Shown piece by piece: positions 1-11,630 of a stretch of DNA of 31,092 bases. Made by a program: the position numbers and the translations under genes. The DNA lies in UHGV virus genome UHGV-0151410. One strand, 5' to 3'. Under the pieces are notes generated by a model that had not been told where the DNA came from, made no database searches, and saw only the letters and a program-made list of their open reading frames with translations. How positions within the stretch are numbered: position 1 is the stretch's first letter; each line of letters opens with the position of its first letter. The DNA is from a virus.

Positions 1-264
1 ATGGGGCGCTTTTTCTTTCACGTAATGGGGGCGCTGGCAGAAATGGAACGTGAGCTTATCGTTGAACGTACACGCGCTGGACTTGATGCAGCTCGCGCAG
101 AAGGTCGTATAGGTGGGCGTCGGCCTAAATACCAAGAAGAAACATGGCAGCAAATGCGGCGATTGCTGGAGAAGGGCATCCCCCGTAAGCAGGTTGCAAT
201 CATCTATGATGTGGCTGTTTCCACGCTTTATAAGAAGTTTCCGGCGTCATCATTTCAATCCTAA
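1..264 (+). CDS. Serine DNA invertase (Gin/Cin/Hin/Pin family), C-terminal fragment; 5' end is outside the window
   Basis: Translation GRFFFHVMGALAEMERELIVERTRAGLDAARAEGRIGGRRPKYQ...IPRKQVAIIYDVAVSTLYKKFP is the conserved C-terminal catalytic-domain end plus HTH DNA-binding domain of Gin-family invertases. ORF runs to the window edge. Confidence 0.9.
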   Translation: MGRFFFHVMGALAEMERELIVERTRAGLDAARAEGRIGGRRPKYQEETWQQMRRLLEKGIPRKQVAIIYDVAVSTLYKKFPASSFQS

Positions 265-281
265 ACCTTGGTTTAAGAGAA
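256..281. other. Left crossover site (hix/gix/cix-like, 12+2+12 bp)
   Basis: CAATCCTAAACC-TT-GGTTTAAGAGAA; half-sites resemble hix half-sites (TTATCAAAAACC / TTCTTGAAAACC) around a 2-bp core. Invertase stop codon (262..264) lies in the outer half-site. Confidence 0.7.
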
Positions 282-409
282 CTCGGTACCAGCGGTGAAA
301 AGATCCCCCTGTTGAGTACGGCTAACACATGGAGTGCACGCCAGACTTTCAACGGCGGGATCACCGGGGCACTGACAGGGAACGCCGACACCGCGACGAA
401 ATTGAAAAC
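265..409. repeat. Left arm of the ~145-bp inverted repeat bounding the invertible segment
   Basis: Reverse complement matches 7075..7219 with only a few mismatches; encodes the same peptide (LGLRELGTSGEKIPLLSTANTWSARQTFNGGITG...) as the expressed fibre gene. Confidence 0.9.
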
Positions 410-3038
410 TGCACGCACGATTGGCGGTGTGGCATTTGATGGCTCGGCCAATATCAATCTTCCAGGTGTAAATACAACAGGCAACCAGAACACCACCGGG
501 AATGCTGCTACCGCGACAAAACTTGCGACGGCAAGAAACATCAACGGTGTTAAATTTGATGGTTCAGGGGACGTTAATATCAATACGTTGGTATCACGCG
601 GGCGCGTAACGGCGTTAAGTGGCTCTACTCAGGGTACTGCTGGCATTCAAATGTACGAGGCGTACAACAATAGCTACCCGACCACGTATGGCAACGTATT
701 GCACATGAAAGGTGCGAGTGCTGCTGGTGAGGGCGAGTTGCTTATTGGCTGGAGTGGTACGAGCGGTGCACATGCGCCGGTTTTCATTCGCTCCCGAAGA
801 GATAACACTGATGCGGCATGGTCAGCGTGGGCGCAGGTATATACATCAAGGGACTCCATTCCTGGTGTGAATGCCACTGGCAATCAGAATACAACTGGCA
901 ATGCAGCAACCGCTACAAAACTACAGACGGCAAGAACTATCGGCGGAGTTAGCTTTGATGGTACTGCGAATATTAATTTACCTGGTGTTAACGTTGCGGG
1001 TAATCAGAATACATCCGGTAACGCGGCTACAGCGACCAAGTTACAAACCGCTAGAACTATAAATGGGGTGTCGTTTGACGGTTCTAAAAACATTGAGCTA
1101 ACTCCAAGGTCTATAGGCTCGATCAACTCAGCAACAATGTCTTTTAGTGGTGGTGCCGGATGGTTCAAGCTGGCAACTGTAACCATGCCACAGGCCAGTT
1201 CCGTGGTTTACATAAGCCTGATTGGTGGTGCAGGGTATAACGTTGGCTCCCCGCAGCAAGCTGGCATATCTGAGCTGGTTCTGCGTGCAGGAAATGGGAA
1301 TCCAAAAGGTATTACTGGTGCATTATGGCGACGGACCTCGGTTGGATTTACTAATTTTGCATGGGTGAATACATCCGGTGATACCTATGACATTTATGTA
1401 GAAATAGGTAATTACGCCACAGGTGTTAATATCCAGTGGGATTATACAAAGGATGCAACTGTACAAATTCATACATCACCAACTTATACAGCGAATAAAC
1501 CAACTGGTCTTACTGATGGAACGGTATATGTCATTTACAGTTCGCACATTAAACCGACCGCCACGGATGTCGGCGCATTACCAATAACCGGAGGAAATCT
1601 CAACGGCGGTTTAACGGCTACTGGTGAGATCATTTCAAAATCGGCGAATGGTCTGCGCATTGCCTACGGAAACTACGGATTCTTTATCCGAAACGATGGT
1701 TCAAGCACATACTTCATGTTGACCGATTCGGGTAACAGCCTGGGAACCTATAATAGGTTAAGGCCGCTTATCATTAACAATGCCAATGGTGCTGTTACGA
1801 TCGGTAATGGACTCAATGTTACTGGCGGCATCAATGGTAGTTTGAACGGTAATGCTGCAACTGCAACAAAACTGCAAACAGCACGCACAATAGGCGGCGT
1901 GTCATTCGATGGCTCCGCCAATATCAACCTGCCGGGTGTAAACATTGCTGGTAACCAGAACACAACCGGTAATGCAGCGACAGCGACCAAGTTGCAAACT
2001 GCTAGAACTATAAATGGGGTGTCGTTTGATGGTTCTAAAAATATTGAGCTAACGGCGGAAGATTTAAATCTTGAGCAAACTGTAGAATTAGCCGCAGGAG
2101 CATTGCAGAAAAACCAGAACGGCGCAGATATACCGGGAAAAGATACCTTCACAAAAAATATTGGTGCATGTCGCGCTTTTCACAGTGCTATTAGTACAGG
2201 GGCAGGGAACTGGACAACGGCACAATTGATTGAATGGCTGGATTCTCAAGGGGCATTCAATCACCCATACTGGATGTGCAAATGTTCATGGTCATACGGC
2301 AATAATAAAATTATTACCGATACTGGCTGTGGAACTATTCATCTTGCAGGTTGCGTTATTGAGGTTATGGGTAATAAAGGTGCCATGACCATCCGTGTAA
2401 CCACCCCGAGCACTTCCAGCGGTGGCGGAACTACTAATGCACAATTCACTTATATTAATCATGGTGATGCTTATGCTCCTGGCTGGCGACGAGACTACAA
2501 CACGAAAAACCAGCAGCCTGCATTTGCTTTAGGGAAAACAGGAAGCACTGTCGGAAATGATAAAGCTGTTGGCTGGAACTGGAATAGCGGGGTCTATCAA
2601 GCAAATATTGGTGGCGCATCGACATTAATCCTCCATTTCAATATGAGCGAGGGGAGTTGCCCTGCCGTACAGTTCCGTGTGAATTATAAGAACGGCGGTA
2701 TTTATTATCGTTCAGCGCGTGATGGTTATGGATTTGAGGCTGACTGGTCAGAGTTTTACACCACAACCCGCAAACCCTCTGCGGGGGATGTTGGTGCATA
2801 TACCAAAGCGGAAGCGGACTCCCGTTATGTACGTGATATCCGACTTGGTGGCGCATCATCATACAAACCAGCAAATAACGGTACAACATGGACGCATCAG
2901 GCTCCATCTGGTTGCGCATATACCGGGATTATCGTTCAGGATACAGGCTCAAACTCTGCCGATAATATTGGTGGTGTTTATTACAGACCAATTCAAAAAA
3001 ATATTAATGGCACATGGTATAACGTATCGAGTATTTGA
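270..3038 (+). CDS. Silent alternative tail-fibre C-terminal segment (Sv'-like); no start of its own, would be fused to the constant N-terminal part after inversion
   Basis: Frame is open from the crossover core (GLRELGTSGEKIPLLSTANTW...) to the stop at 3038. Contains three copies of the ~55-aa fibre repeat (GNQNTTGNAATATKLQTARTI(N/G)GV(S/K)FDGS). The track ORF 312..3038 starts at an internal Met. Confidence 0.85.
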   Translation, partial: GLRELGTSGEKIPLLSTANTWSARQTFNGGITGALTGNADTATKLKTARTIGGVAFDGSANINLPGVNTTGNQNTTGNAATATKLATARNINGVKFDGSGDVNINTLVSRGRVTALSGSTQGTAGIQMYEAYNNSYPTTYGNVLHMKGASAAGEGELLIGWSGTSGAHAPVFIRSRRDNTDAAWSAWAQVYTSRDSIPGVNATGNQNTTGNAATATKLQTARTIGGVSFDGTANINLPGVNVAGNQNTSGNAATATKLQTARTINGVSFDGSKNIELTPRSIGSINSATMSFSGGAGWFKLATVTMPQASSVVYISLIGGAGYNVGSPQQAGISELVLRAGNGNPKGITGALWRRTSVGFTNFAWVNTSGDTYDIYVEIGNYATGVNIQWDYTKDATVQIHTSPTYTANKPTGLTDGTVYVIYSSHIKPTATDVGALPITGGNLNGGLTATGEIISKSANGLRIAYGNYGFFIRNDGSSTYFMLTDSGNSLGTYNRLRPLIINNANGAVTIGNGLNVTGGINGSLNGNAATATKLQTARTIGGVSFDGSANINLPGVNIAGNQNTTGNAATATKLQTARTINGVSFDGSKNIELTAEDLNLEQTVELAAGALQKNQNGADIPGKDTFTKNIGACRAFHSAISTGAGNWTTAQLIEWLDSQGAFNHPYWMCKCSWSYGNNKIITDTGCGTIHLAGCVIEVMGNKGAMTIRVTTPSTSSGGGTTNAQFTYINHGDAYAPGWRRDYNTKNQQPAFALGKTGSTVGNDKAVGWNWNSGVYQANIGGASTLILHFNMSEGSCPAVQFRVNYKNGGIYYRSARDGYGFEADWSEFYTTTRKPSAGDVGAYTKAEADSRYVRDIRLGGASSYKPANNGTTWTHQAPSGCAYTGIIVQDTGSNSADNIGGVYYRPIQKNINGTWYNVSSI
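1642..2071. repeat. Internal inverted repeat, copy A (perfect 1677..2071)
   Basis: Reverse complement is identical to 5002..5396, then continues to ~5431 with a few synonymous mismatches. Both copies encode IISKSANGLRIAYGNYGFFIRNDG...FDGSKNIELTAEDLNL. Confidence 0.85.
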
Positions 3039-3574
3039 TTATGATGCATTTAAAAAACATAAAGCCAGGCAATCCAAAAACCGAAGAGCAATATCTTTTA
3101 ACTAAAAACTCAGGCGTCGTCTGGTTATGGACCGAAGATGGTAAGAACTGGTACGAGGAACAAAAGAACTTTCAGGACGACACCATAAAGATTGCATATG
3201 ATGAAAATAATGTTATATGCGACGTGCAAAAGGATGTGACTGCAATTTGCCCGGAGGGAAAAAGTGTCGTTGAGGTTCCTGATATTACAGCAAATCGCCG
3301 GGCTGATATTTCGGGTAAATGGATGTTCAAAGATGGCGTAGTGATAAAGCGAACTTATACCGAGGAAGAGCAGAGGCAACAAGCGGAAAATGAAAAGCAA
3401 AGCCTGCTACAGCTCGTCAGGGATAAAACACAGCTATGGGACTTACAGCTACGGCTGGGCATCATTTCCGACGAGAATAAACAAAAATTAACCGAGTGGA
3501 TGCTCTATGCGCAGAAAGTCGAATCTACAGACACCTCCAGCCTGCCAGTAACATTTCCCGAACAACCTGAATGA
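3035..3574 (+). CDS. Tail fibre assembly chaperone (U'-like), cognate of the silent fibre segment
   Basis: 179 aa; start overlaps the fibre-segment stop (ATGA). Paralogous to the minus-strand 3603..4133 product (shared HLKNIKxGNPKT...WLW.EDxKNWYEE...[23 protein letters not shown]). Confidence 0.85.
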   Translation: MIMMHLKNIKPGNPKTEEQYLLTKNSGVVWLWTEDGKNWYEEQKNFQDDTIKIAYDENNVICDVQKDVTAICPEGKSVVEVPDITANRRADISGKWMFKDGVVIKRTYTEEEQRQQAENEKQSLLQLVRDKTQLWDLQLRLGIISDENKQKLTEWMLYAQKVESTDTSSLPVTFPEQPE

Positions 3575-3577
3575 GAC

Positions 3578-3605
3578 AAGGCCCGATAGCGGGCCTTAAT
3601 TTTTA
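3578..3605. terminator. Bidirectional hairpin terminator between convergent chaperone genes
   Basis: AAGGCCCG-ATAG-CGGGCCTT stem-loop with T-run after it on the + strand and A-run before it (T-run on the other strand). Confidence 0.6.
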
Positions 3606-4133
3606 TTCAGGCTTTTGTGGCCATTCAGGATTTGCCGTATCCACACGGCTGACCAGAACACTGTAGCGTTCCCATGCTTCCAGTCGTGTGCGCTCCTCGT
3701 CTGTTGCCATATTCAGCCTGACAGCGCGTTCCAGCGGCTGGATGACTGATTCAGCTTCGGAAAGCAATGCGGCCTTTTGTGATTCGGCCTGTTGTTGCTG
3801 TTCGTCTGCCGTATAAATCCGTTTAACCACAGCTCCATCCTTAAACATCCACTTCCCGGAGTCATCAGCACGTCGGTTGGCTGTAATATCGGGAACCTCA
3901 ACGACGCTAAAACCTTCAGGGTTAAGCGTGGATGCATCTTTGGTGATGGCGACAATAATATTATTTTCATCGTAAACAATCTTTATTGTGTCTGGTTGAA
4001 AGTTTTTCACTTCCTCATACCAGTTTTTATCGTCTTCGGACCATAACCAGATAACATCAAAATTCTTTGTTAGCTGATATTGTTCTTTCGTTTTAGGATT
4101 TCCAGACTTAATATTTTTTAAATGCTGCATCAT
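3603..4133 (-). CDS. Tail fibre assembly chaperone (U-like), cognate of the currently expressed fibre C-terminus
   Basis: 176 aa, directly downstream of the expressed fibre gene on the minus strand; paralogue of 3035..3574. Confidence 0.85.
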
Positions 4134-7100
4134 TTACACCTGTGCGACGTTATACCATGTGCCATTGATGTATTTTTGTATTGGCCTGAAGATGGCTTCA
4201 TCATCGCCATCTACTTCACCAATGATTCTTAATCCGGTAATTGCGTGTCCGGCTTTTTCATAACGACCACCACGCGCCATCAATTGAACAACTCGCGTAC
4301 CCAGGCGAACATCTTTTACATAGCGTGAATCAAAATTCCCCCAGTTGTTGGGCTGTATCTGACCGTTAACAGAAAATATTACCGAGTTATCTGTATTTCG
4401 CTGGCTATAGAAATGCCATCCTGCCTCATCGCCTAACTCTGCAACTACTGGACGGGTTGAAGCACCCCATAAATTAAACGTTGCATTCTTTGTGGAGGTG
4501 TTGGAGCTGGATAGCGAGAACTTTTTACTATCACCAGCCTGAATGTTTTTAAAAGCAATAGCAACTCCATTCTGAAAGCGGAATACTCGCTGACTATTAG
4601 CGTAAACATCCAGAATACCATCACCATTCTGTTTGAATCCGGTGTCATTATCACCAAGAACAATAGAGCTACCACCTAACGCATTCGTCGTACCAACTCC
4701 AAGACTGCCATTAATGACGGCATTTACCAGAATATTTAGTGCATCCCATTTCAGCGTCATCAGGTCTTTTGTTGTGGTGCTCTGGCGGCTTCTCCATTTG
4801 AAATATTCATTGCCGTTGTCGCCTGTTTCAAACCACATGTATGAATCAGTGTCACCATCGGCATCATTTTTAAATCCAATCTTTGCCCAGTCAGTATTTC
4901 GAATCCAGGCAAGGATTGAGTCGTTTTCAAAAGTAAGTCCTCCGGACAAGATATCGCCTGAACGCTGAACGGCATTATTTGCTTTATTAATAAATTCCTG
5001 TAGATTTAAATCTTCCGCCGTTAGCTCAATATTTTTAGAACCATCAAACGACACCCCATTTATAGTTCTAGCAGTTTGCAACTTGGTCGCTGTCGCTGCA
5101 TTACCGGTTGTGTTCTGGTTACCAGCAATGTTTACACCCGGCAGGTTGATATTGGCGGAGCCATCGAATGACACGCCGCCTATTGTGCGTGCTGTTTGCA
5201 GTTTTGTTGCAGTTGCAGCATTACCGTTCAAACTACCATTGATGCCGCCAGTAACATTGAGTCCATTACCGATCGTAACAGCACCATTGGCATTGTTAAT
5301 GATAAGCGGCCTTAACCTATTATAGGTTCCCAGGCTGTTACCCGAATCGGTCAACATGAAGTATGTGCTTGAACCATCGTTTCGGATAAAGAATCCATAG
5401 TTGCCATAGGCAATGCGCAGACCATTCGCCGATTTGGAAATAATCTCGCCAGCGAATTTCGCATAGGAACCAGTCCTCAAGACTAACTCTTCCTGAGCGT
5501 CAGTTGTTCCTGTACATAAGCGATAAACATTATTCTCTATTGTTTCATGCCATATGCTTGCACCTGTGCTGGAGCGGAAACGTCGCAGATACATTTTTGC
5601 ATCGTCAACAACTGACGTGAGCATGTCATGTTTATACTCACTTTGCGGCACGCCATTGCTATTGATTCCTCCCCGAAGAACAGTGCCACCCGGCATGGTA
5701 AAAATGCCATCTTCACCGAATATCCAATCACCTGAATTAGTACCATTGCCGGTTTCTTTATTCGGCGCAGCACAATTTATCCGGATGCCTGGTCGTCTGT
5801 TAGGGTTATCGACACCATCTTTAAATATGTACCCATCAGTTAGTGTTGTGCCGTCATTTTTCGTATATGTAAAGCGGATATGACGGCTTGTATGGCTACT
5901 AAAAATAAGATCGCTTTTAGTGGTAAGTAATGGAGCTGTCAGACCTCCTAATAATGTGCCTCCGGATAGAGACAGCGCGCCAATGTTCTCTGGTGTCAAC
6001 GAAATATCAGTAGTGCCATCGAAGGTTACTCCGTTGATTGTTCTGGCGGTCTGTAATTTAGTTGCTGTTGCAGCATTACCATTGAGGTTTCCAGAGCTAT
6101 AGAAACCACGACCATTGCTAAAATCAATAATTATGTCGGCAGCTATACATTCAGCTTTAGGGTTGGTAGCCCCCCATTTGTATGTGGTTTGTCCAACAAT
6201 ATAATCCGTTGTAGGGACAACAACAGAAAGCCCCTCCTCCACAAGAACGCATACTGGAAATGCTCCGCCTTCAATATAAAAAACTGAGCTAACTTCATCG
6301 TCTTTATTGCTCATCGCAATAGAATGAATCGCCCGTTCTGCATCCTGATATTGCCAGAACATCCCGTATGCGTACCGCCCTCTGTCACTCCAACCAGCAG
6401 GCATCACAAAACCATTGAATTCGCAGTTGTTCATGCGATGTGCAGCTTGGCGCGGCGCAGTGGAAATAATAACCCGAGAAGCAAGTTCACCATTGCTCGT
6501 TGCAGATCTCTTGATGACTACAGGATAGAATTTACCCTCTTCAGCTCCCGAAGGAGCATTGACTCTGGTGAATTTCATCCCTTTTTTAAGGTCTACTTCG
6601 GCTTTGCTGTAAACATCAATATTTTTTCTTGTTAACGCTGCATCAGTTGGTTCTAATGCTCGGCATTTGCTATCTCCGGTAATCAGAAAGTTACCGTCAA
6701 TGTCTAATCCGGCATATTTATTGGTGTTGGTATCAGATTGTAGATGTAACGTCAGCCATGAGCGGTTGCCACTCCTTATCTCTGAATAAATTCTGAAACG
6801 ACTCCTCTGTACCCCAGCTGAATTATTCAGATAACCACTTACAATCCCTGACGCGGCTAAATCAGCGTCTGTTGAGTTAACAAGATTGATACCCTTAAAT
6901 TGGGGGACGTCCGCAACACCTAATCCAAGATTAGTACGCCCTCCAGAGACGCTGGATGCACCTAATCCCCCATGAGTAATTGGTAAAATACCTTTTATGC
7001 CCAGAAGAGCATTTGATGAACCATCAAAGTCGATGGCGTTATCACTTTGGAGGTCAACTTGAAGCGACCTTTTGGTTTTCAATTTCGTCGCGGTGTCGGC

Positions 7101-8435
7101 GTTCCCTGTCAGCTCCCCGGTGATCCCGCCGTTGAAAGTCTGGCGCGCACTCCATGTGTTAGCTGTGCTCAACAGGGGGATCTTTTCACCGCTGGTACCG
7201 AGTTCTCTTAAACCAAGGTATTGGATAACGGCCAGTGTGCTTGTTTTAGCCAGAATATCGCGACCGACTGACGTTAAATCAGTCTGCGCTACCGTATCCT
7301 TACCAGTGAAATAAGGCAGTTTGTTTGCACCAGTCGCAAGGGCAGCGAGCGCGGTTAAAGTTGCATCCAGAGGCTGTTTGCCTGCCAGCGCATTTGTCAT
7401 TGTTGTCGCAAAGTTCGGGTCATTGCCCAGTGCTGCTGCAAGCTCATTCAGGGTATCAAGAGCTTCAGGTGATGAGCCGACCAATGCAGAGATAGCAGCT
7501 CTTACATAAGCGGTCGTAGCAATCTGCGTGTTATTCGTACCCTGTGCAGCGGTAGGCGCAGTAGGTATTCCCGTTAATGCAGGACTTGCTAAAGGCGCTT
7601 TAAGGGCCAGAGCATTGTTGATAGTTGTGCTGAAATTCGGGTCGTTATTGATCGCAGCCGCTATTTCTTTCAGCGTATCCAATGTGCCAGGTGCACCGTT
7701 GATAAGTGCCGTTATAGCTGCCTTAACAAAGGCCGCATTTGCGATCTGTGTGTTGTTTGTACCGGGTTCAGGTGTCGGCGAAGTCGGCGTACCTGACAGA
7801 TGTGGACTATCGAGCGGAGCTTTTGTATCAACCAAATCATGGAGAGTTTTGACAGCCAGAGGTGTAGCCGCTTTTCTTTCTTCTGTACTGCTTATTTCAT
7901 TAGAGAATTCGACACCAACAGCACGGTTAACCCGGTATTTAAGCACAATCATTTCTTTAGTCACAGCCGTTGCGCCGTTAGGCACGATAACTCGACATAA
8001 TTCAATTTGATTCTGCCCAATAGTATTGTCCGTACGCGCGTAAATTCTTGCAGCACTGACAGAAGATGCGCTCTCTACCTGTGTCGTTTTTACACCATGT
8101 TCAAAATTGGCTTCCAGCACAATAATGTTGGTAGCCCCAGCCTTTACCGAGACAGTCACATCTTCTATTTGCTGAACGGATATCTGAACATTATTTACAT
8201 CTACTGAAGCAGCCCCTTTACCTTCTGAGTTTTCAGAAGTTATACGGACGCTCAACCCTGTGCCGGGAACTGGTTCAAATCCACAGTAAAAGCCCGGCAA
8301 AACAATATTTTTAAGTTTTCTGTTAAGAGCCGAACTACTATAGAGTTCGAAATATTGAACATCAGCAAGCAACGGCTGTGAGACACCAGAGGATAGTGTC
8401 ATTATGTTGTTCGTTTTATCAGCACCCATAATCAA
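4134..8435 (-). CDS. Tail fibre protein (P1 S / Mu S-like): constant N-terminal part (about 7216..8435) fused to a variable C-terminal part (4134..7215)
   Basis: 1433 aa; N-terminal tandem ~65-aa repeats (GTNNTQIA...LDTL.E.AAA..NDPNF), multiple fibre repeats (GNAATATKLQTARTI.GV.FDGS); crossover site lies in frame inside the gene. Likely true start is the ATG at 8427..8429 (the track start at 8435 is TTG). Confidence 0.9.
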   Translation of the reverse strand: MIMGADKTNNIMTLSSGVSQPLLADVQYFELYSSSALNRKLKNIVLPGFYCGFEPVPGTGLSVRITSENSEGKGAASVDVNNVQISVQQIEDVTVSVKAGATNIIVLEANFEHGVKTTQVESASSVSAARIYARTDNTIGQNQIELCRVIVPNGATAVTKEMIVLKYRVNRAVGVEFSNEISSTEERKAATPLAVKTLHDLVDTKAPLDSPHLSGTPTSPTPEPGTNNTQIANAAFVKAAITALINGAPGTLDTLKEIAAAINNDPNFSTTINNALALKAPLASPALTGIPTAPTAAQGTNNTQIATTAYVRAAISALVGSSPEALDTLNELAAALGNDPNFATTMTNALAGKQPLDATLTALAALATGANKLPYFTGKDTVAQTDLTSVGRDILAKTSTLAVIQYLGLRELGTSGEKIPLLSTANTWSARQTFNGGITGELTGNADTATKLKTKRSLQVDLQSDNAIDFDGSSNALLGIKGILPITHGGLGASSVSGGRTNLGLGVADVPQFKGINLVNSTDADLAASGIVSGYLNNSAGVQRSRFRIYSEIRSGNRSWLTLHLQSDTNTNKYAGLDIDGNFLITGDSKCRALEPTDAALTRKNIDVYSKAEVDLKKGMKFTRVNAPSGAEEGKFYPVVIKRSATSNGELASRVIISTAPRQAAHRMNNCEFNGFVMPAGWSDRGRYAYGMFWQYQDAERAIHSIAMSNKDDEVSSVFYIEGGAFPVCVLVEEGLSVVVPTTDYIVGQTTYKWGATNPKAECIAADIIIDFSNGRGFYSSGNLNGNAATATKLQTARTINGVTFDGTTDISLTPENIGALSLSGGTLLGGLTAPLLTTKSDLIFSSHTSRHIRFTYTKNDGTTLTDGYIFKDGVDNPNRRPGIRINCAAPNKETGNGTNSGDWIFGEDGIFTMPGGTVLRGGINSNGVPQSEYKHDMLTSVVDDAKMYLRRFRSSTGASIWHETIENNVYRLCTGTTDAQEELVLRTGSYAKFAGEIISKSANGLRIAYGNYGFFIRNDGSSTYFMLTDSGNSLGTYNRLRPLIINNANGAVTIGNGLNVTGGINGSLNGNAATATKLQTARTIGGVSFDGSANINLPGVNIAGNQNTTGNAATATKLQTARTINGVSFDGSKNIELTAEDLNLQEFINKANNAVQRSGDILSGGLTFENDSILAWIRNTDWAKIGFKNDADGDTDSYMWFETGDNGNEYFKWRSRQSTTTKDLMTLKWDALNILVNAVINGSLGVGTTNALGGSSIVLGDNDTGFKQNGDGILDVYANSQRVFRFQNGVAIAFKNIQAGDSKKFSLSSSNTSTKNATFNLWGASTRPVVAELGDEAGWHFYSQRNTDNSVIFSVNGQIQPNNWGNFDSRYVKDVRLGTRVVQLMARGGRYEKAGHAITGLRIIGEVDGDDEAIFRPIQKYINGTWYNVAQV
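5002..5431. repeat. Internal inverted repeat, copy B (perfect 5002..5396)
   Basis: Reverse complement of 1642..2071. Confidence 0.85.
7075..7219. repeat. Right arm of the ~145-bp inverted repeat
   Basis: Reverse complement of 265..409. Confidence 0.9.
7203..7228. other. Right crossover site (hix/gix/cix-like)
   Basis: TTCTCTTAAACC-AA-GGTATTGGATAA; inner half-site identical to the left site, outer half-site TTATCCAATACC is hix-like. Confidence 0.7.
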
Positions 8436-8878
8436 CCCTCAACTTGCTCGATTGTCATGAGAATACTGTAACGTTTACCTTTATAGAGGGTGTCTTGCTG
8501 GGTGCAAAGCACAGCAAAAGCCTGTTCCTCAGCATCAACAAGCACAAGCGTGTTAAAGTCGTAAGGCGTGTTATCCGGCATTCTTTCTTGAGGGAAGGCT
8601 GCATTGATAGTGATAATCCCATCCACACTGGACAATATCAGATCGGACACAGCAAACTGTTGAGCGTTTCTCAATTTAAAATCGAGTGGAATGTCCGCTA
8701 TATTCCAGCCTCCTGCACCATTAGCAGTTACCAGACTAGATTTGCACCAATACGCCTTAGAGATAACAAAACGCGCACCTTTGCCGATCGCCGACTCAGC
8801 GCGGCGTGAATAATAGTAGGAAAGCAATTGCGCCTTATACAGGCGGTTACCATCTCTTGCCTTTAAATTTTCAGCCAT
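8432..8878 (-). CDS. Small tail-fibre/baseplate-associated structural protein (position equivalent to P1 R); function inferred from context
   Basis: 148 aa ORF immediately upstream of and nearly abutting the fibre gene on the same strand. Confidence 0.55.
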   Translation of the reverse strand: MAENLKARDGNRLYKAQLLSYYYSRRAESAIGKGARFVISKAYWCKSSLVTANGAGGWNIADIPLDFKLRNAQQFAVSDLILSSVDGIITINAAFPQERMPDNTPYDFNTLVLVDAEEQAFAVLCTQQDTLYKGKRYSILMTIEQVEG

Positions 8879-8943
8879 ACGAACATAGCCCCTTCATAAG
8901 CAATGAACCAAAGGAGAGTATGCTCAGTTTGTGATTTCCGTTG

Positions 8944-8969
8944 TTCTTCCCCCGCATTTGGGGGAAGAA
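8944..8969. other. GC-rich intergenic stem-loop (10-bp stem TTCTTCCCCC/GGGGGAAGAA)
   Basis: Perfect hairpin between two minus-strand structural genes; possible attenuator or RNA stability element. Confidence 0.4.
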
Positions 8970-8972
8970 TTA

Positions 8973-9818
8973 TTAAACAGGTTGAAGGTGGTAATCCAAA
9001 GGCCACGCATCGAGTGGGGTTACATCAAGATGTAATTGCTTTTCTGCCGTTCTGTTCTGTATGGCGTTAAGAGAAATATTGTTTACCTGGCAGGAGGTAT
9101 CACTACGGGATAGCATATCAGCCATACTCTCAGTAACATAAACACCTTCAATTACCGAAACATCCGTAGACAAGCAATTTAGTATTTCTGCCACTTCAGG
9201 GAATACAGCACTAAGCCGAAACGAGACGCCATCAAAAACAATATGCAATGGCAACAAAGGGGCTATTACTGTTTCGAAGTCAGATAACAATTTCTGCACA
9301 GCGGCTTCTTTATCCTGCTCTCCATATGAGCGATATAGCTTGTTCTGATCAACAACGACCAGCCCCCTTGATGTCAGGAAGAACTCACCGAATTGAGCCT
9401 GTGCCGTAGGTATTTCTATTTCGGTCGCAAAATATGAACCATAGGGGTGTTTTTCTATATTTACAGGTGCATACAGCGGTTCCCAACTAACAGGAATACA
9501 ACCGAATTCACGCCAGAATGTCTGCTCAATAGGCAAGATAGTGCCTTTAAAGTGCACTTCATCTAAACGTTGCGCCAGCAGCATTGGCCTACGGTCCTTA
9601 TCTTTTTCAGTGATAACGAAAAAACGCCCGTATTCAGCAATGCGGGCATCCATATCCTCACTGTCCATAGTGAAGAAGGATTTTCTGTTACTTATTCTTG
9701 TTAATATTGGTTCTACTGCCTCATTCCAGACATCCTGTAAAGCGTCTATAAATGCACTCCAGAGATGTGAATCCTGTTTTACTTTAGTTAATCGTTCCTT
9801 AAGCCAATTATCTTTCAT
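8973..9818 (-). CDS. Putative baseplate protein
   Basis: 281 aa ORF in the baseplate block between the fibre genes and the J-like wedge protein; assignment by context only. Confidence 0.5.
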   Translation of the reverse strand: MKDNWLKERLTKVKQDSHLWSAFIDALQDVWNEAVEPILTRISNRKSFFTMDSEDMDARIAEYGRFFVITEKDKDRRPMLLAQRLDEVHFKGTILPIEQTFWREFGCIPVSWEPLYAPVNIEKHPYGSYFATEIEIPTAQAQFGEFFLTSRGLVVVDQNKLYRSYGEQDKEAAVQKLLSDFETVIAPLLPLHIVFDGVSFRLSAVFPEVAEILNCLSTDVSVIEGVYVTESMADMLSRSDTSCQVNNISLNAIQNRTAEKQLHLDVTPLDAWPLDYHLQPV

Positions 9819-9828
9819 GCTAACCTCA

Positions 9829-11259
9829 TTACGGGTAAGAAATGCTGAACGTTGAAGATTTTACGTTAAGATAAATGAAGTCATTAAAGTAAACAGCATC
9901 TTTCATATTTTGTATTGTTATGTCGTAAGACAGAAACATATCCAGAGACTCTATTACTCGCCAAATATCTTTAACTTTTACCTGTGCATAACATTGTTGG
10001 GAATCATCATCACTCTGTAGTAATAAACTGAATGATGACGAATCACGGCCAAAATTATCTTCCAATGCTGCTTTAATAGCATTTTTAGCATCGTCTATCA
10101 GAACATTTTTACGTGCAATACCTATAAAATTTATAGTAAATGGCTGTTCATTTGTATCTACATACTCGAACCGCTTGTTCAACTCATTTGGAACATTCTC
10201 TAGAGCTTTCAGTATTTCTGATTTTAGCTGAGCCTGGCTTACACCCGGCTTATGTCCGCAAAAGAAAATTTTGTTGATGTTTCGAACGTCAAACCCAGTT
10301 ATTTTCTCTTGTAACGCTTCGCCCCAAACGTTCAACCATGAAGTTCCATGAACAACATTCTGAATGAATTGGCGATAATCACCGCCCCATACCACTTGTT
10401 CATCGTATGCAACATAATACTGAGCACGATTTCGAGTTTCTTCTGTAGTTTCCATACCACTACCACCGGTAATGATCGAATCAGTTTTAAACTCTAGTGA
10501 CTCCACATATTGAGCGATATTTCCAGCCGGTTCTAACTTTTGTCCTTCAGCCAAAGTATAGTCGCCAAGGCTAGCCATAACATCGATTCGAACCTGACAG
10601 CCTGCTGGAGGCATCATACCCATAGAACCATCACCAAACTTGACTCCAAGTTGTTCTGTAGGTTTATATGCCAATGAATAGTGCTTACTCTTGTCTCTGG
10701 ACATTCTAAATAATGGGTTATATGTCCATTTTTCTTCTACTCCATCTGTAATAACATAAACATCCAGGCTAGAGACTTCTTTTGTTAACTCTCTGGAAAG
10801 CAACAATGTCAGAAATAAAGTTTCCTTCTCAATATCAAATGTAATGCTAACAGCTTCATGCTGTTTAGTTTCTACGCCAGAAACAGTTCCTCCAGCAGGA
10901 ATTACAACACTGTTAATAATTGCCAAAGGTGTTTGGTCATTGGCAAGCAATTCAGCCCCGGCTGGTAACGTAATATCCCGATCAGTTTTATTGGTTATAG
11001 ACGTTGTTCCGTATGAAGCACTAACAAATCGCCCTACGTAGCTACGGTCTTCAGCAACCGCTAAAATACTTGAGCGACGCGTTGCCGTTGAAATAAGTCC
11101 CTCAGTGAGGCCGCGGCTTGCAAATGTACGGGCAATATAAATAAGCTGCGATCCGAATATAGCGTGCATCTGCACAAACTGACTATTTACAAATCGTGAC
11201 CACCATGTGTTTTCATTTAACTTGGCGTTAAATTTGTCCAGTAATTCTGTAATCGTCAC
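9829..11259 (-). CDS. Baseplate wedge protein, gpJ/gp6-like (P1 BplA-like)
   Basis: 476 aa; size and position next to a small gp25/W-like gene; stop overlaps the upstream gene by 4 bp (translational coupling). Confidence 0.55.
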   Translation of the reverse strand: MTITELLDKFNAKLNENTWWSRFVNSQFVQMHAIFGSQLIYIARTFASRGLTEGLISTATRRSSILAVAEDRSYVGRFVSASYGTTSITNKTDRDITLPAGAELLANDQTPLAIINSVVIPAGGTVSGVETKQHEAVSITFDIEKETLFLTLLLSRELTKEVSSLDVYVITDGVEEKWTYNPLFRMSRDKSKHYSLAYKPTEQLGVKFGDGSMGMMPPAGCQVRIDVMASLGDYTLAEGQKLEPAGNIAQYVESLEFKTDSIITGGSGMETTEETRNRAQYYVAYDEQVVWGGDYRQFIQNVVHGTSWLNVWGEALQEKITGFDVRNINKIFFCGHKPGVSQAQLKSEILKALENVPNELNKRFEYVDTNEQPFTINFIGIARKNVLIDDAKNAIKAALEDNFGRDSSSFSLLLQSDDDSQQCYAQVKVKDIWRVIESLDMFLSYDITIQNMKDAVYFNDFIYLNVKSSTFSISYP

Positions 11260-11630
11260 GCGCCCACCCCACTTGATTTCTGCATAACAATATCCATGCT
11301 CCCACCTTTCGCATAAAAACTAATTAATAAAGAATCTTCAGAAATTGATGTGCAACGAATCCCCTGCACATCCAAACCTGGCAAGTCTTGTCGTAGTTTT
11401 TTCATCATTCTCCCTTCAATAGCCACTTCAACTATGTGCGAAGTTTCAGAGCCGAATGGTTCATGCTTAAATTCTTCCATTGGACTCCCCCAAGAGGGTA
11501 AACCATAAACACTCCCTTCAGGGGTTCGTAGCCACTCGTCAAGTCGGGCCATCCATGCTGCGGTACTTCCTTCTGCAATAATGACACCGCTCTCATTCGT
11601 TTGAAGTCTTGCGTCTATTTCGTAAAGCAT
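11256..11630 (-). CDS. Baseplate wedge subunit, gpW/gp25-like
   Basis: 124 aa, typical size and position (immediately upstream of the J-like gene, overlapping stop/start). Confidence 0.5.
   Translation of the reverse strand: MLYEIDARLQTNESGVIIAEGSTAAWMARLDEWLRTPEGSVYGLPSWGSPMEEFKHEPFGSETSHIVEVAIEGRMMKKLRQDLPGLDVQGIRCTSISEDSLLISFYAKGGSMDIVMQKSSGVGA

Follow-up and report, generated by a model that had tools for sequence, protein, structure and literature searches.

A nested inverted repeat inside the invertible tail fibre segment of a P1-like phage-plasmid and its possible role in re-pairing fibre shafts and tips

Does the invertible tail fibre segment of a P1-like phage-plasmid undergo a second inversion nested within the first, and by which route would it occur? 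The question is raised by the virus genome UHGV-0151410, a stretch of 31,092 nucleotides (hereafter the window), in which an original prediction, made from the letters alone, had noticed a long inverted repeat inside the segment inverted by the serine recombinase Cin. Similarity searches place the window within a P1-like phage-plasmid, as it is 99.9% identical to plasmid ptetA of E. coli 19-5 across 8.9 kb and matches P1, P7 and D6 piecewise. Its Cin-invertible C segment measures 6.96 kb between the cix crossover sites at 256-281 and 7203-7228; the P1 counterpart measures 4.26 kb. Our analysis indicates that the repeat is a real, recombination-active homology block with room for four fibre combinations, at which exchange is most likely of the RecA type rather than driven by Cin.

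Ungapped comparison showed that 5002-5396 is the exact reverse complement of 1677-2071, with no mismatch over 395 nt, just as had been claimed. A perfect repeat of this length cannot have originated by chance. The full nested inverted repeat (nIR), as delimited by a repeat finder, comprises 458 nt at 98% identity, with arm A at 1621-2078 (+) and arm B at 4995-5452 (-). On the outer side it includes 56 nt of near-identity (1621-1676) with six mismatches, at 1625, 1631, 1637, 1667, 1670 and 1676; on the inner side, 7 nt beyond the perfect block contain three more. Beyond 1620 and 2078 the ungapped comparison found no similarity between the two arms of the window. The extra near-identity of ~35 bp in the original prediction is real as an extension, but the actual outer reach is 56 nt, and the 35 nt run only up to the mismatch at 1637.

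The same 150 amino acids (aa) are encoded by both nIR arms, in frame in both alternative fibre reading frames, and both arms lie between the cix sites; the repeat does sit within the two fibre genes and inside the invertible segment, as proposed. All six outer mismatches are synonymous and fall at third codon positions. The nIR starts within a Gp34_trimer-like domain (PF21446), of which arm A holds the C-terminal part, and runs through two copies of a conserved fibre repeat (TKLQTARTIxGVSFDGSxNI).

The segment was divided into modules, whose names are coined here and are read in the sense of their own fibre gene. The expressed gene S (8435-4134, -; 1433 aa) is composed of Sc, the constant N-terminal part, which lies outside the invertible segment (7227-8435, -); the outer repeat; UB, an arm-specific shaft (5453-7074, -); the nIR; and TipB, a Mu S-like tip (4134-4994, -). 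It is followed by chapB, a U-type tail fibre assembly chaperone for TipB (3603-4133, -; Pfam Caudo_TAP, 1.1e-37). The silent copy (reading frame 312-3038, +) has the outer repeat (258-409), then UA, an arm-specific shaft without counterpart in the other arm (410-1620, +; UA1/UA2 in relatives), then the nIR and TipA. The latter is a Mu S'-like receptor-binding tip (2079-3038, +) with homology to the Mu G / P1 C core and a gp37_C domain, and is followed by its U'-type chaperone chapA (3035-3574, +; Caudo_TAP, 1.4e-35).

We mapped these modules onto 13 related loci. Evidence for a nested inversion was found in CP042632.1 (pNCYU-25-82-5, from swine in Taiwan; locus L014), where the order is Sc-UB-nIR-TipA-chapA / chapB-TipB-nIR-UA-cin. 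Relative to this record, window positions 1-2053 are collinear (99.1%), 1621-5452 are inverted (99.4%) and 5002-9900 are collinear again (99.8%). CP042632.1 carries both of the predicted new fibres, UB-nIR-TipA and UA-nIR-TipB. Its outer haplotypes of single-nucleotide polymorphisms (SNPs) remain with the shafts (TCACAC with UA and CTCTCT with UB), and its inner edges remain with the tips; the crossover in CP042632.1 therefore took place within 1677-2071. In PLSDB, UB-nIR-TipB was found solely in ptetA and UB-nIR-TipA solely in CP042632.1. A search of complete E. coli RefSeq genomes gave no UB-nIR-TipA, and this isomer turned up only in PLSDB. UB stands beside a full nIR only in ptetA, CP042632.1 and plasmids of the pDEC12A-1 type.

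A similar swap was found in a sister lineage with the same Sc. Three of its loci (L005, L011 and L013) have UA-nIR-TipA and Y-nIR-TipB', where Y is the other arm-specific shaft of that lineage and TipB' is its TipB allele, which is 94-95% identical to the TipB of the window for ~250 nt at the start and diverges more after that. In a fourth locus, L006, the pairing is reciprocal (UA-nIR-TipB' and Y-nIR-TipA). An ordinary Cin flip separates L011 from L005, and a Cin flip plus a nested inversion separates it from L006. The arrangement of L006 recurs in L009 (UA-nIR-TipB, with nIR-TipA in the other arm) in a more divergent background, where Sc is 91% identical and TipB is nearer to that of the window (0.98). 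All four combinations of shaft and tip are intact as reading frames, either in silico from the window (the recombinants being 1466 aa and 875 aa) or as annotated coding sequences (CDSs) in relatives. The inverted 1621-5452 of CP042632.1 and the swap in the sister lineage bear out the idea that the ~2.9-kb core can invert, and the intact frames that of four fibre combinations.

The two arms appear to evolve in concert. Within the 395-nt block there are no arm-to-arm differences in the window, L005, L006 or L011. Between plasmids there are two differences, at 1705 and 1994, which set both arms of the window apart from those of the other three. Identity of the arms within four plasmids together with two fixed differences between them is what gene conversion, raised as one possibility in the original prediction, would leave behind.

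The outer edge points in the same direction. Recombinant SNP haplotypes were found there in several relatives, namely CTACAC in L012 and L015, CTCCAC in L009 and CTCTAC in L016, and L009 also has a patch of 10 SNPs at 1994-2021 in one arm. The exchange endpoints among relatives accordingly lie at 1631/1637, at 1637/1667, at 1667/1670, in the 1994-2021 patch, and ~450 nt into a tip. Haplotypes that recombine at different points from plasmid to plasmid favour homologous exchange over a sharp site, as had been suggested from a gradually decaying boundary. That one edge is imperfect is correct, but the decay itself amounts to six synonymous SNPs, which mark conversion endpoints. Long and near-perfect inverted homology, reciprocal isomers in close relatives, and concerted arms with variable endpoints, all of which are expected of homologous inversion, were found here.

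Two Greek IncY P1-like plasmids allow a close view of such exchange. L012 (NZ_MK410117.1, 8001-9328) and L015 (NZ_MK455768.1, 8001-9319) are 99.9% identical elsewhere, and differ here by patchy exchange between the arms, one plasmid having the block haplotypes at 1705/1994/2000 in the opposite arms to the other. L012 also has the first 452 nt of TipA in place of the beginning of TipB, which gives a chimeric TipA/TipB silent fibre and an inverted repeat of ~910 bp. This is a conversion tract that extends into the tip.

Additional recombinase sites were sought in the segment with two position weight matrix (PWM) scans, the first built from 7 half-sites and the second from 15, with the window, Mu, hixL and PMC4134206 as sources. 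Beyond the two cix sites (28-32 bits), no 26-mer in the segment rose above chance in either scan, and the consensus AAACCNNGGTTT was not enriched (15 hits, 16 expected). The earlier inspection by eye, which had seen no convincing extra hix-like site, agrees with this systematic scan for 26-bp crossover-like sites, in which only the two cix sites stand out. Exactly two strong cix sites are likewise present in each of thirteen related P1-type loci with intact switches. Neither more than two recombinase sites nor crossovers confined to a fixed short core, as expected of multiple-inversion systems, were found.

The best non-cix score in the segment belongs to a 26-mer at 1684-1709 that weakly resembles cix and recurs at 5364-5389 (TTATCCGAAACG AT GGTTCAAGCACA; 2.5-3.7 bits). 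It is the third-best 26-mer of the segment and lies in the perfect block of both arms, and 18 of its 24 half-site positions match known halves. Its score is exceeded by the maximum of 68% of the segment shuffles, and is equalled or surpassed at five unrelated positions elsewhere in the window. A published predicted site, EC958 Phi2_3prime (PMC4134206, Table 3), which was left out of the matrix, scores lower still; weak sites can thus be real, and the matrix cannot exclude a degenerate site. One further look-alike, 'ACCTTTTGGTTTTCAA' at 7067-7086 / 1291-1310, was rejected, its spacing being wrong for the 12+2+12 layout and the sequence being absent from the top lists of the PWM scans.

Our preferred reading, to which we give a probability of about 0.78, is that the nIR would act as a shared 'stem' module that joins the arm-specific shafts UA and UB to the Mu-like tips TipA and TipB and their cognate chaperones. 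Differing shaft modules would have come between the nIR and the cix-proximal part of the repeat, leaving an outer pair of 152 bp and an inner pair of 458 bp. Gene conversion between the arms would keep the inner pair identical at synonymous sites, and this pair would serve as a substrate for general homologous recombination of the RecA type, independent of Cin. An occasional reciprocal crossover in the nIR would then invert the 2.9-kb core of tips and chaperones and leave the shafts unmoved. Together with rapid inversion of the entire 6.96-kb segment by Cin, the nested inversion could give four in-frame fibres: Sc-UB-TipB (the one expressed now), Sc-UA-TipA, Sc-UB-TipA and Sc-UA-TipB. Since each tip moves with its own chaperone, the products should be assembly-competent. 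Homologous recombination is favoured because of the synonymous identity, the homogenisation within plasmids, the scattered endpoints, and a reciprocal isomer in which both cix sites are intact. The rate of nested inversion should be far below that of Cin inversion. We infer the enzyme pathway (RecA or phage recombination functions), the intramolecular nature of the events, their rate and any benefit to host range, and likewise RecA dependence and activity in the window's own plasmid.

Several points weigh against this reading. The nested isomers rest on database assemblies of relatives, not on reads from one culture of the window's plasmid. The record CP042632.1 has small indels, fragmented CDSs and an odd duplication of ~950 bp, which suggests a noisy long-read assembly. 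If only short reads had been used, the database 'isomers' could in principle reflect an arbitrary choice of the assembler across a 458-bp repeat, and the SNP phasing between the arms of L012 and L015 is open to the same doubt. The crossover interval of CP042632.1 (1677-2071) also includes the weak 26-mer at 1684-1709, and a site-specific event there is formally possible. Finally, exchange between two co-resident elements could take the place of intramolecular inversion, although two events would be needed to put both products on one molecule.

The explanation that survives best beside the shared stem is that the nIR is a static shared domain, which has been homogenised by past conversion or was recently acquired and does not invert here, the isomers being due to assembly ambiguity or to exchange of modules between elements. 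SSU5-like phage-plasmids of ~110 kb have UA2-nIR-TipA (99.7%) or nIR-TipB (97.9%) within one fibre gene that cannot invert, so the block moves between elements; besides, each UB state is known from one record only, and that of CP042632.1 is noisy. However, the two reciprocal products occur together on the single molecule CP042632.1, none of whose modules falls below 99% identity to the window. One crossover within a molecule suffices for this, whereas the intermolecular route needs two coordinated events, and the reciprocal pattern is repeated in a second background (L006 and L011). The indels of CP042632.1 themselves suggest long reads, which easily span a 458-bp repeat. Moreover, RecA-dependent exchange in E. 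coli requires far less than 395 bp of perfect homology. We therefore consider a static domain unlikely.

The second explanation, a programmed multiple inversion like that of p15B Min, in which Cin or a trans-acting invertase would use a cryptic site in each nIR arm, could draw on the weak 26-mer within the CP042632.1 crossover interval and on plasmid pDEC12A-1, where a Cin-type enzyme appears to have used a poor quasi-site in the same fibre gene, but it is very improbable, as the 26-mer has 2.5-3.7 bits against 28-32 for real sites, the scattered endpoints in relatives are the signature of homologous exchange and not of a fixed 2-bp crossover, and a programmed site needs only 26 bp, which leaves the identity of 395 nt at synonymous positions unexplained.

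The shared-stem reading can also be taken further. The nIR may be part of an evolved two-tier switch of host range, in which the fast Cin flip picks a shaft-tip pair and a promoted nested inversion re-pairs shafts and tips at a useful frequency, the promoting factor being, for example, Cin at 1684-1709, P1 Ref/RecA in lytic growth, or another phage function. We regard this stronger version as distinctly doubtful. If it were true, one phage-plasmid would have four receptor specificities.

E. coli often harbours P1-like phage-plasmids; these carry resistance genes, serve as delivery vectors, and have their host range set by the fibre locus. If shafts and tips re-assort reversibly in addition to the Cin switch, one element would encode twice as many fibres. 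Exchange at the nIR would also explain part of the extreme mosaicism of 'variable region 3' in P1-like plasmids, among which the fibre region has already been listed as hypervariable (PMC9603915, PMC6906374). Short reads cannot give the orientation of the 2.9-kb core, and annotation and typing of P1-like plasmids should expect four arrangements, not two. The two-tier arrangement is testable and has practical consequences for assembly and for host-range prediction. In the literature searched, no description was found of a split or nested repeat in P1-like C segments, or of nested isomers. The P1 C segment with its 0.6-kb repeats, the crossover sites of the Din family, multiple-inversion systems and mosaic tail fibre evolution are all well known. 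The nested repeat is a variant of the known P1 architecture, which extends known principles, overturns nothing and will not surprise a specialist.

The rest of the switch, taken as 264-7220, has the features of a Din-family invertible segment: an invertase gene, two inverted 26-bp sites, and mirror-image C-termini that are in frame and each have a cognate chaperone. The window begins inside the cin-type serine invertase gene, whose 3' end (1-264, +; Pfam Resolvase and HTH_7) is collinear with P1 cin at 98.8% and whose stop codon abuts cixL; ptetA, 99.9% identical to the window, has the gene in full. The cixL site at 256-281 (CAATCCTAAACC TT GGTTTAAGAGAA; 27.8-29.9 bits) is identical to the annotated P1 cixL, and the cixR site at 7203-7228 (31.8-32.3 bits) is identical to P1 cixR. 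The outer inverted repeat has its first arm at 258-409 (+; 98.8% to P1, locus L001, 1758-1912) and its second at 7075-7226 (-), the 152 nt of the latter being 95% complementary to the former. A recombinational enhancer is annotated in P1. This Fis-dependent enhancer lies within the 5' part of P1 cin, and the 5' part of the window's cin lies outside the window.

An unusual cixL was observed in L004 (NZ_CP077480.1, pDEC12A-1). At 1756-2090 of this locus (268-576 in the window), the ~304 bp directly inside cixL have undergone an in-place inversion. One breakpoint is exactly at the central dinucleotide of cixL, and the junctions are CAATCCTAAACC TT/GATATCGCC... and TTCTCTTAAACC AA/CATTAATAC.... 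No intact cixL is left, and this is the sole P1-like locus with a single strong cix site. The arrangement suggests that Cin recombined cixL with a poor quasi-site whose core dinucleotide matches, after which the switch would be locked.

Both fibre genes also contain several diverged direct copies (64-81%) of a fibre-repeat unit of ~120-206 nt (NAATATKLQTARTIxGVxFDGSxNI), at 378-583, 897-1102 and 1848-2053, and at 5029-5108, 5149-5228 and 6004-6083. These offer further, weaker homology for in-frame deletions and duplications, such as a deletion with frameshift in the UA of L005 and the duplication of L014. The latter, at 9728-11300 of that locus, is a tandem duplication of ~950 bp in the cin-proximal arm with the order UA2-nIR(1-433)-UA2-nIR (window equivalent 1001-2053). 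It arose either by unequal crossing-over between two direct repeats that are 81% similar (897-1102 and 1848-2053) or as an artefact of assembly in this indel-rich record. The chaperone genes give a further inverted repeat in the middle of the segment, as their N-terminal halves (3038-3397 / 3774-4133) are 71% complementary over 360 nt; this is ordinary U / U' paralogy, too diverged for efficient recombination.

Modules of the window type were found outside P1-like elements as well. In SSU5-like phage-plasmids (siphovirus-type, with a cor gene), for example L010 (NZ_CP045278.1, pLAU-OXA1) at 7477-9264 and other plasmids of ~110 kb, they lie within a single non-invertible side tail fibre gene. 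The shaft, stem and tip modules are thus common to two unrelated phage-plasmid families, with the nIR as the tip-exchange junction there too.

How does this arrangement compare with known systems? The C segments of P1, P7 and D6 are the nearest. They share with the window the same cin, identical cixL and cixR, the same gene order (Sc, Sv-U / U'-Sv'), the same inner boundary and junctions, and a core that is homologous to Mu G at about 87-92%. In P1, there is a single contiguous inverted repeat of 636 bp (98.3%), which extends from each cix site as far as the ~3-kb Mu-G-like core. Window 258-412 corresponds to its first 155 bp (98.8%), and window 1968-2084 to its last 117 bp (92% and 86%). Positions 1622-1820 of the nIR are absent from the P1 repeat and are 76% identical to a paralogous Gp34_trimer-like stretch deeper in P1 Sv. 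The nIR can only in part be regarded as what is left of the P1 repeat, as just the last ~117 bp match it (86-92%). The inner-edge junctions are the same in P1 and in the window, reading ...GAAGATTTAAATCT followed by TGAGC in one arm and by ACAGGAA in the other. Because these junctions and the last 117 bp correspond to the P1 repeat, the nIR is the inner part of the classical P1-type repeat architecture and no novel duplication.

The difference from P1 is in the layout. The P1 repeat is one block starting at cix, while here it is divided into 152 bp and 458 bp, split by 1.2 kb of UA or 1.6 kb of UB. The distance from cix to the nIR is 1.35 kb in arm A and 1.77 kb in arm B, and only the separate 152-bp outer repeat abuts cix; the nIR does not start at cix as the classical repeat does, but it ends at the Mu-G-like unique core in both arms. 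Since the P1 repeat is contiguous from cix, recombination within it gives the same product as Cin. Because of the split, the segment is longer (6.96 kb against 4.26 kb), and exchange within the inner block yields a different product.

In the G segment of Mu, inverted by Gin at gix sites, the core (Sv-U-U'-S'v) is homologous to that between the nIR arms, and the inner-edge junctions of the nIR align with the gix crossover position. Unlike in Mu, there is no functional gix-like site at this place in the window or in P1, and the real crossover sites are much further out. On the TipB side inside the nIR boundary, window 4983-4994 (-) reads TCTACAGGAA(A), which matches the outer half-site of Mu gix, GGTTTACAGGAA. 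The remnant is also present in P1 (L001, ~5390-5400), and the TipA side is without it. We rejected this relic as an active site, as it is one half-site remnant on the TipB side only; its position suggests that the inner repeat boundary may descend from an ancestral gix-type crossover site.

The p15B Min system and shufflons rely on several short recombinase crossover sites. Like these systems, the locus would put more than two fibre C-termini on one constant N-terminus through inversions nested in one segment. Unlike these, it has no extra site above chance, and its repeats are long, protein-coding blocks of homology. Systems of the Min or shufflon type are mentioned in passing in PMC6906374 and PMC9881135.

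Tail fibre genes are also known to evolve as mosaics, through exchange between homologous conserved motifs (Sandmeier 1994, cited in PMC4134206), and recombination among phage-plasmids has been described as well (PMC10879196). The likeness to this mosaic evolution is that the nIR holds conserved fibre-repeat motifs and is the point where shafts and tips change partners, both among P1-like plasmids and between P1-like and SSU5-like phage-plasmids. The difference is that both partners here are inverted on the same molecule, inside a programmed switch, so that exchange between them would be a reversible inversion which keeps both alleles, instead of a replacement.

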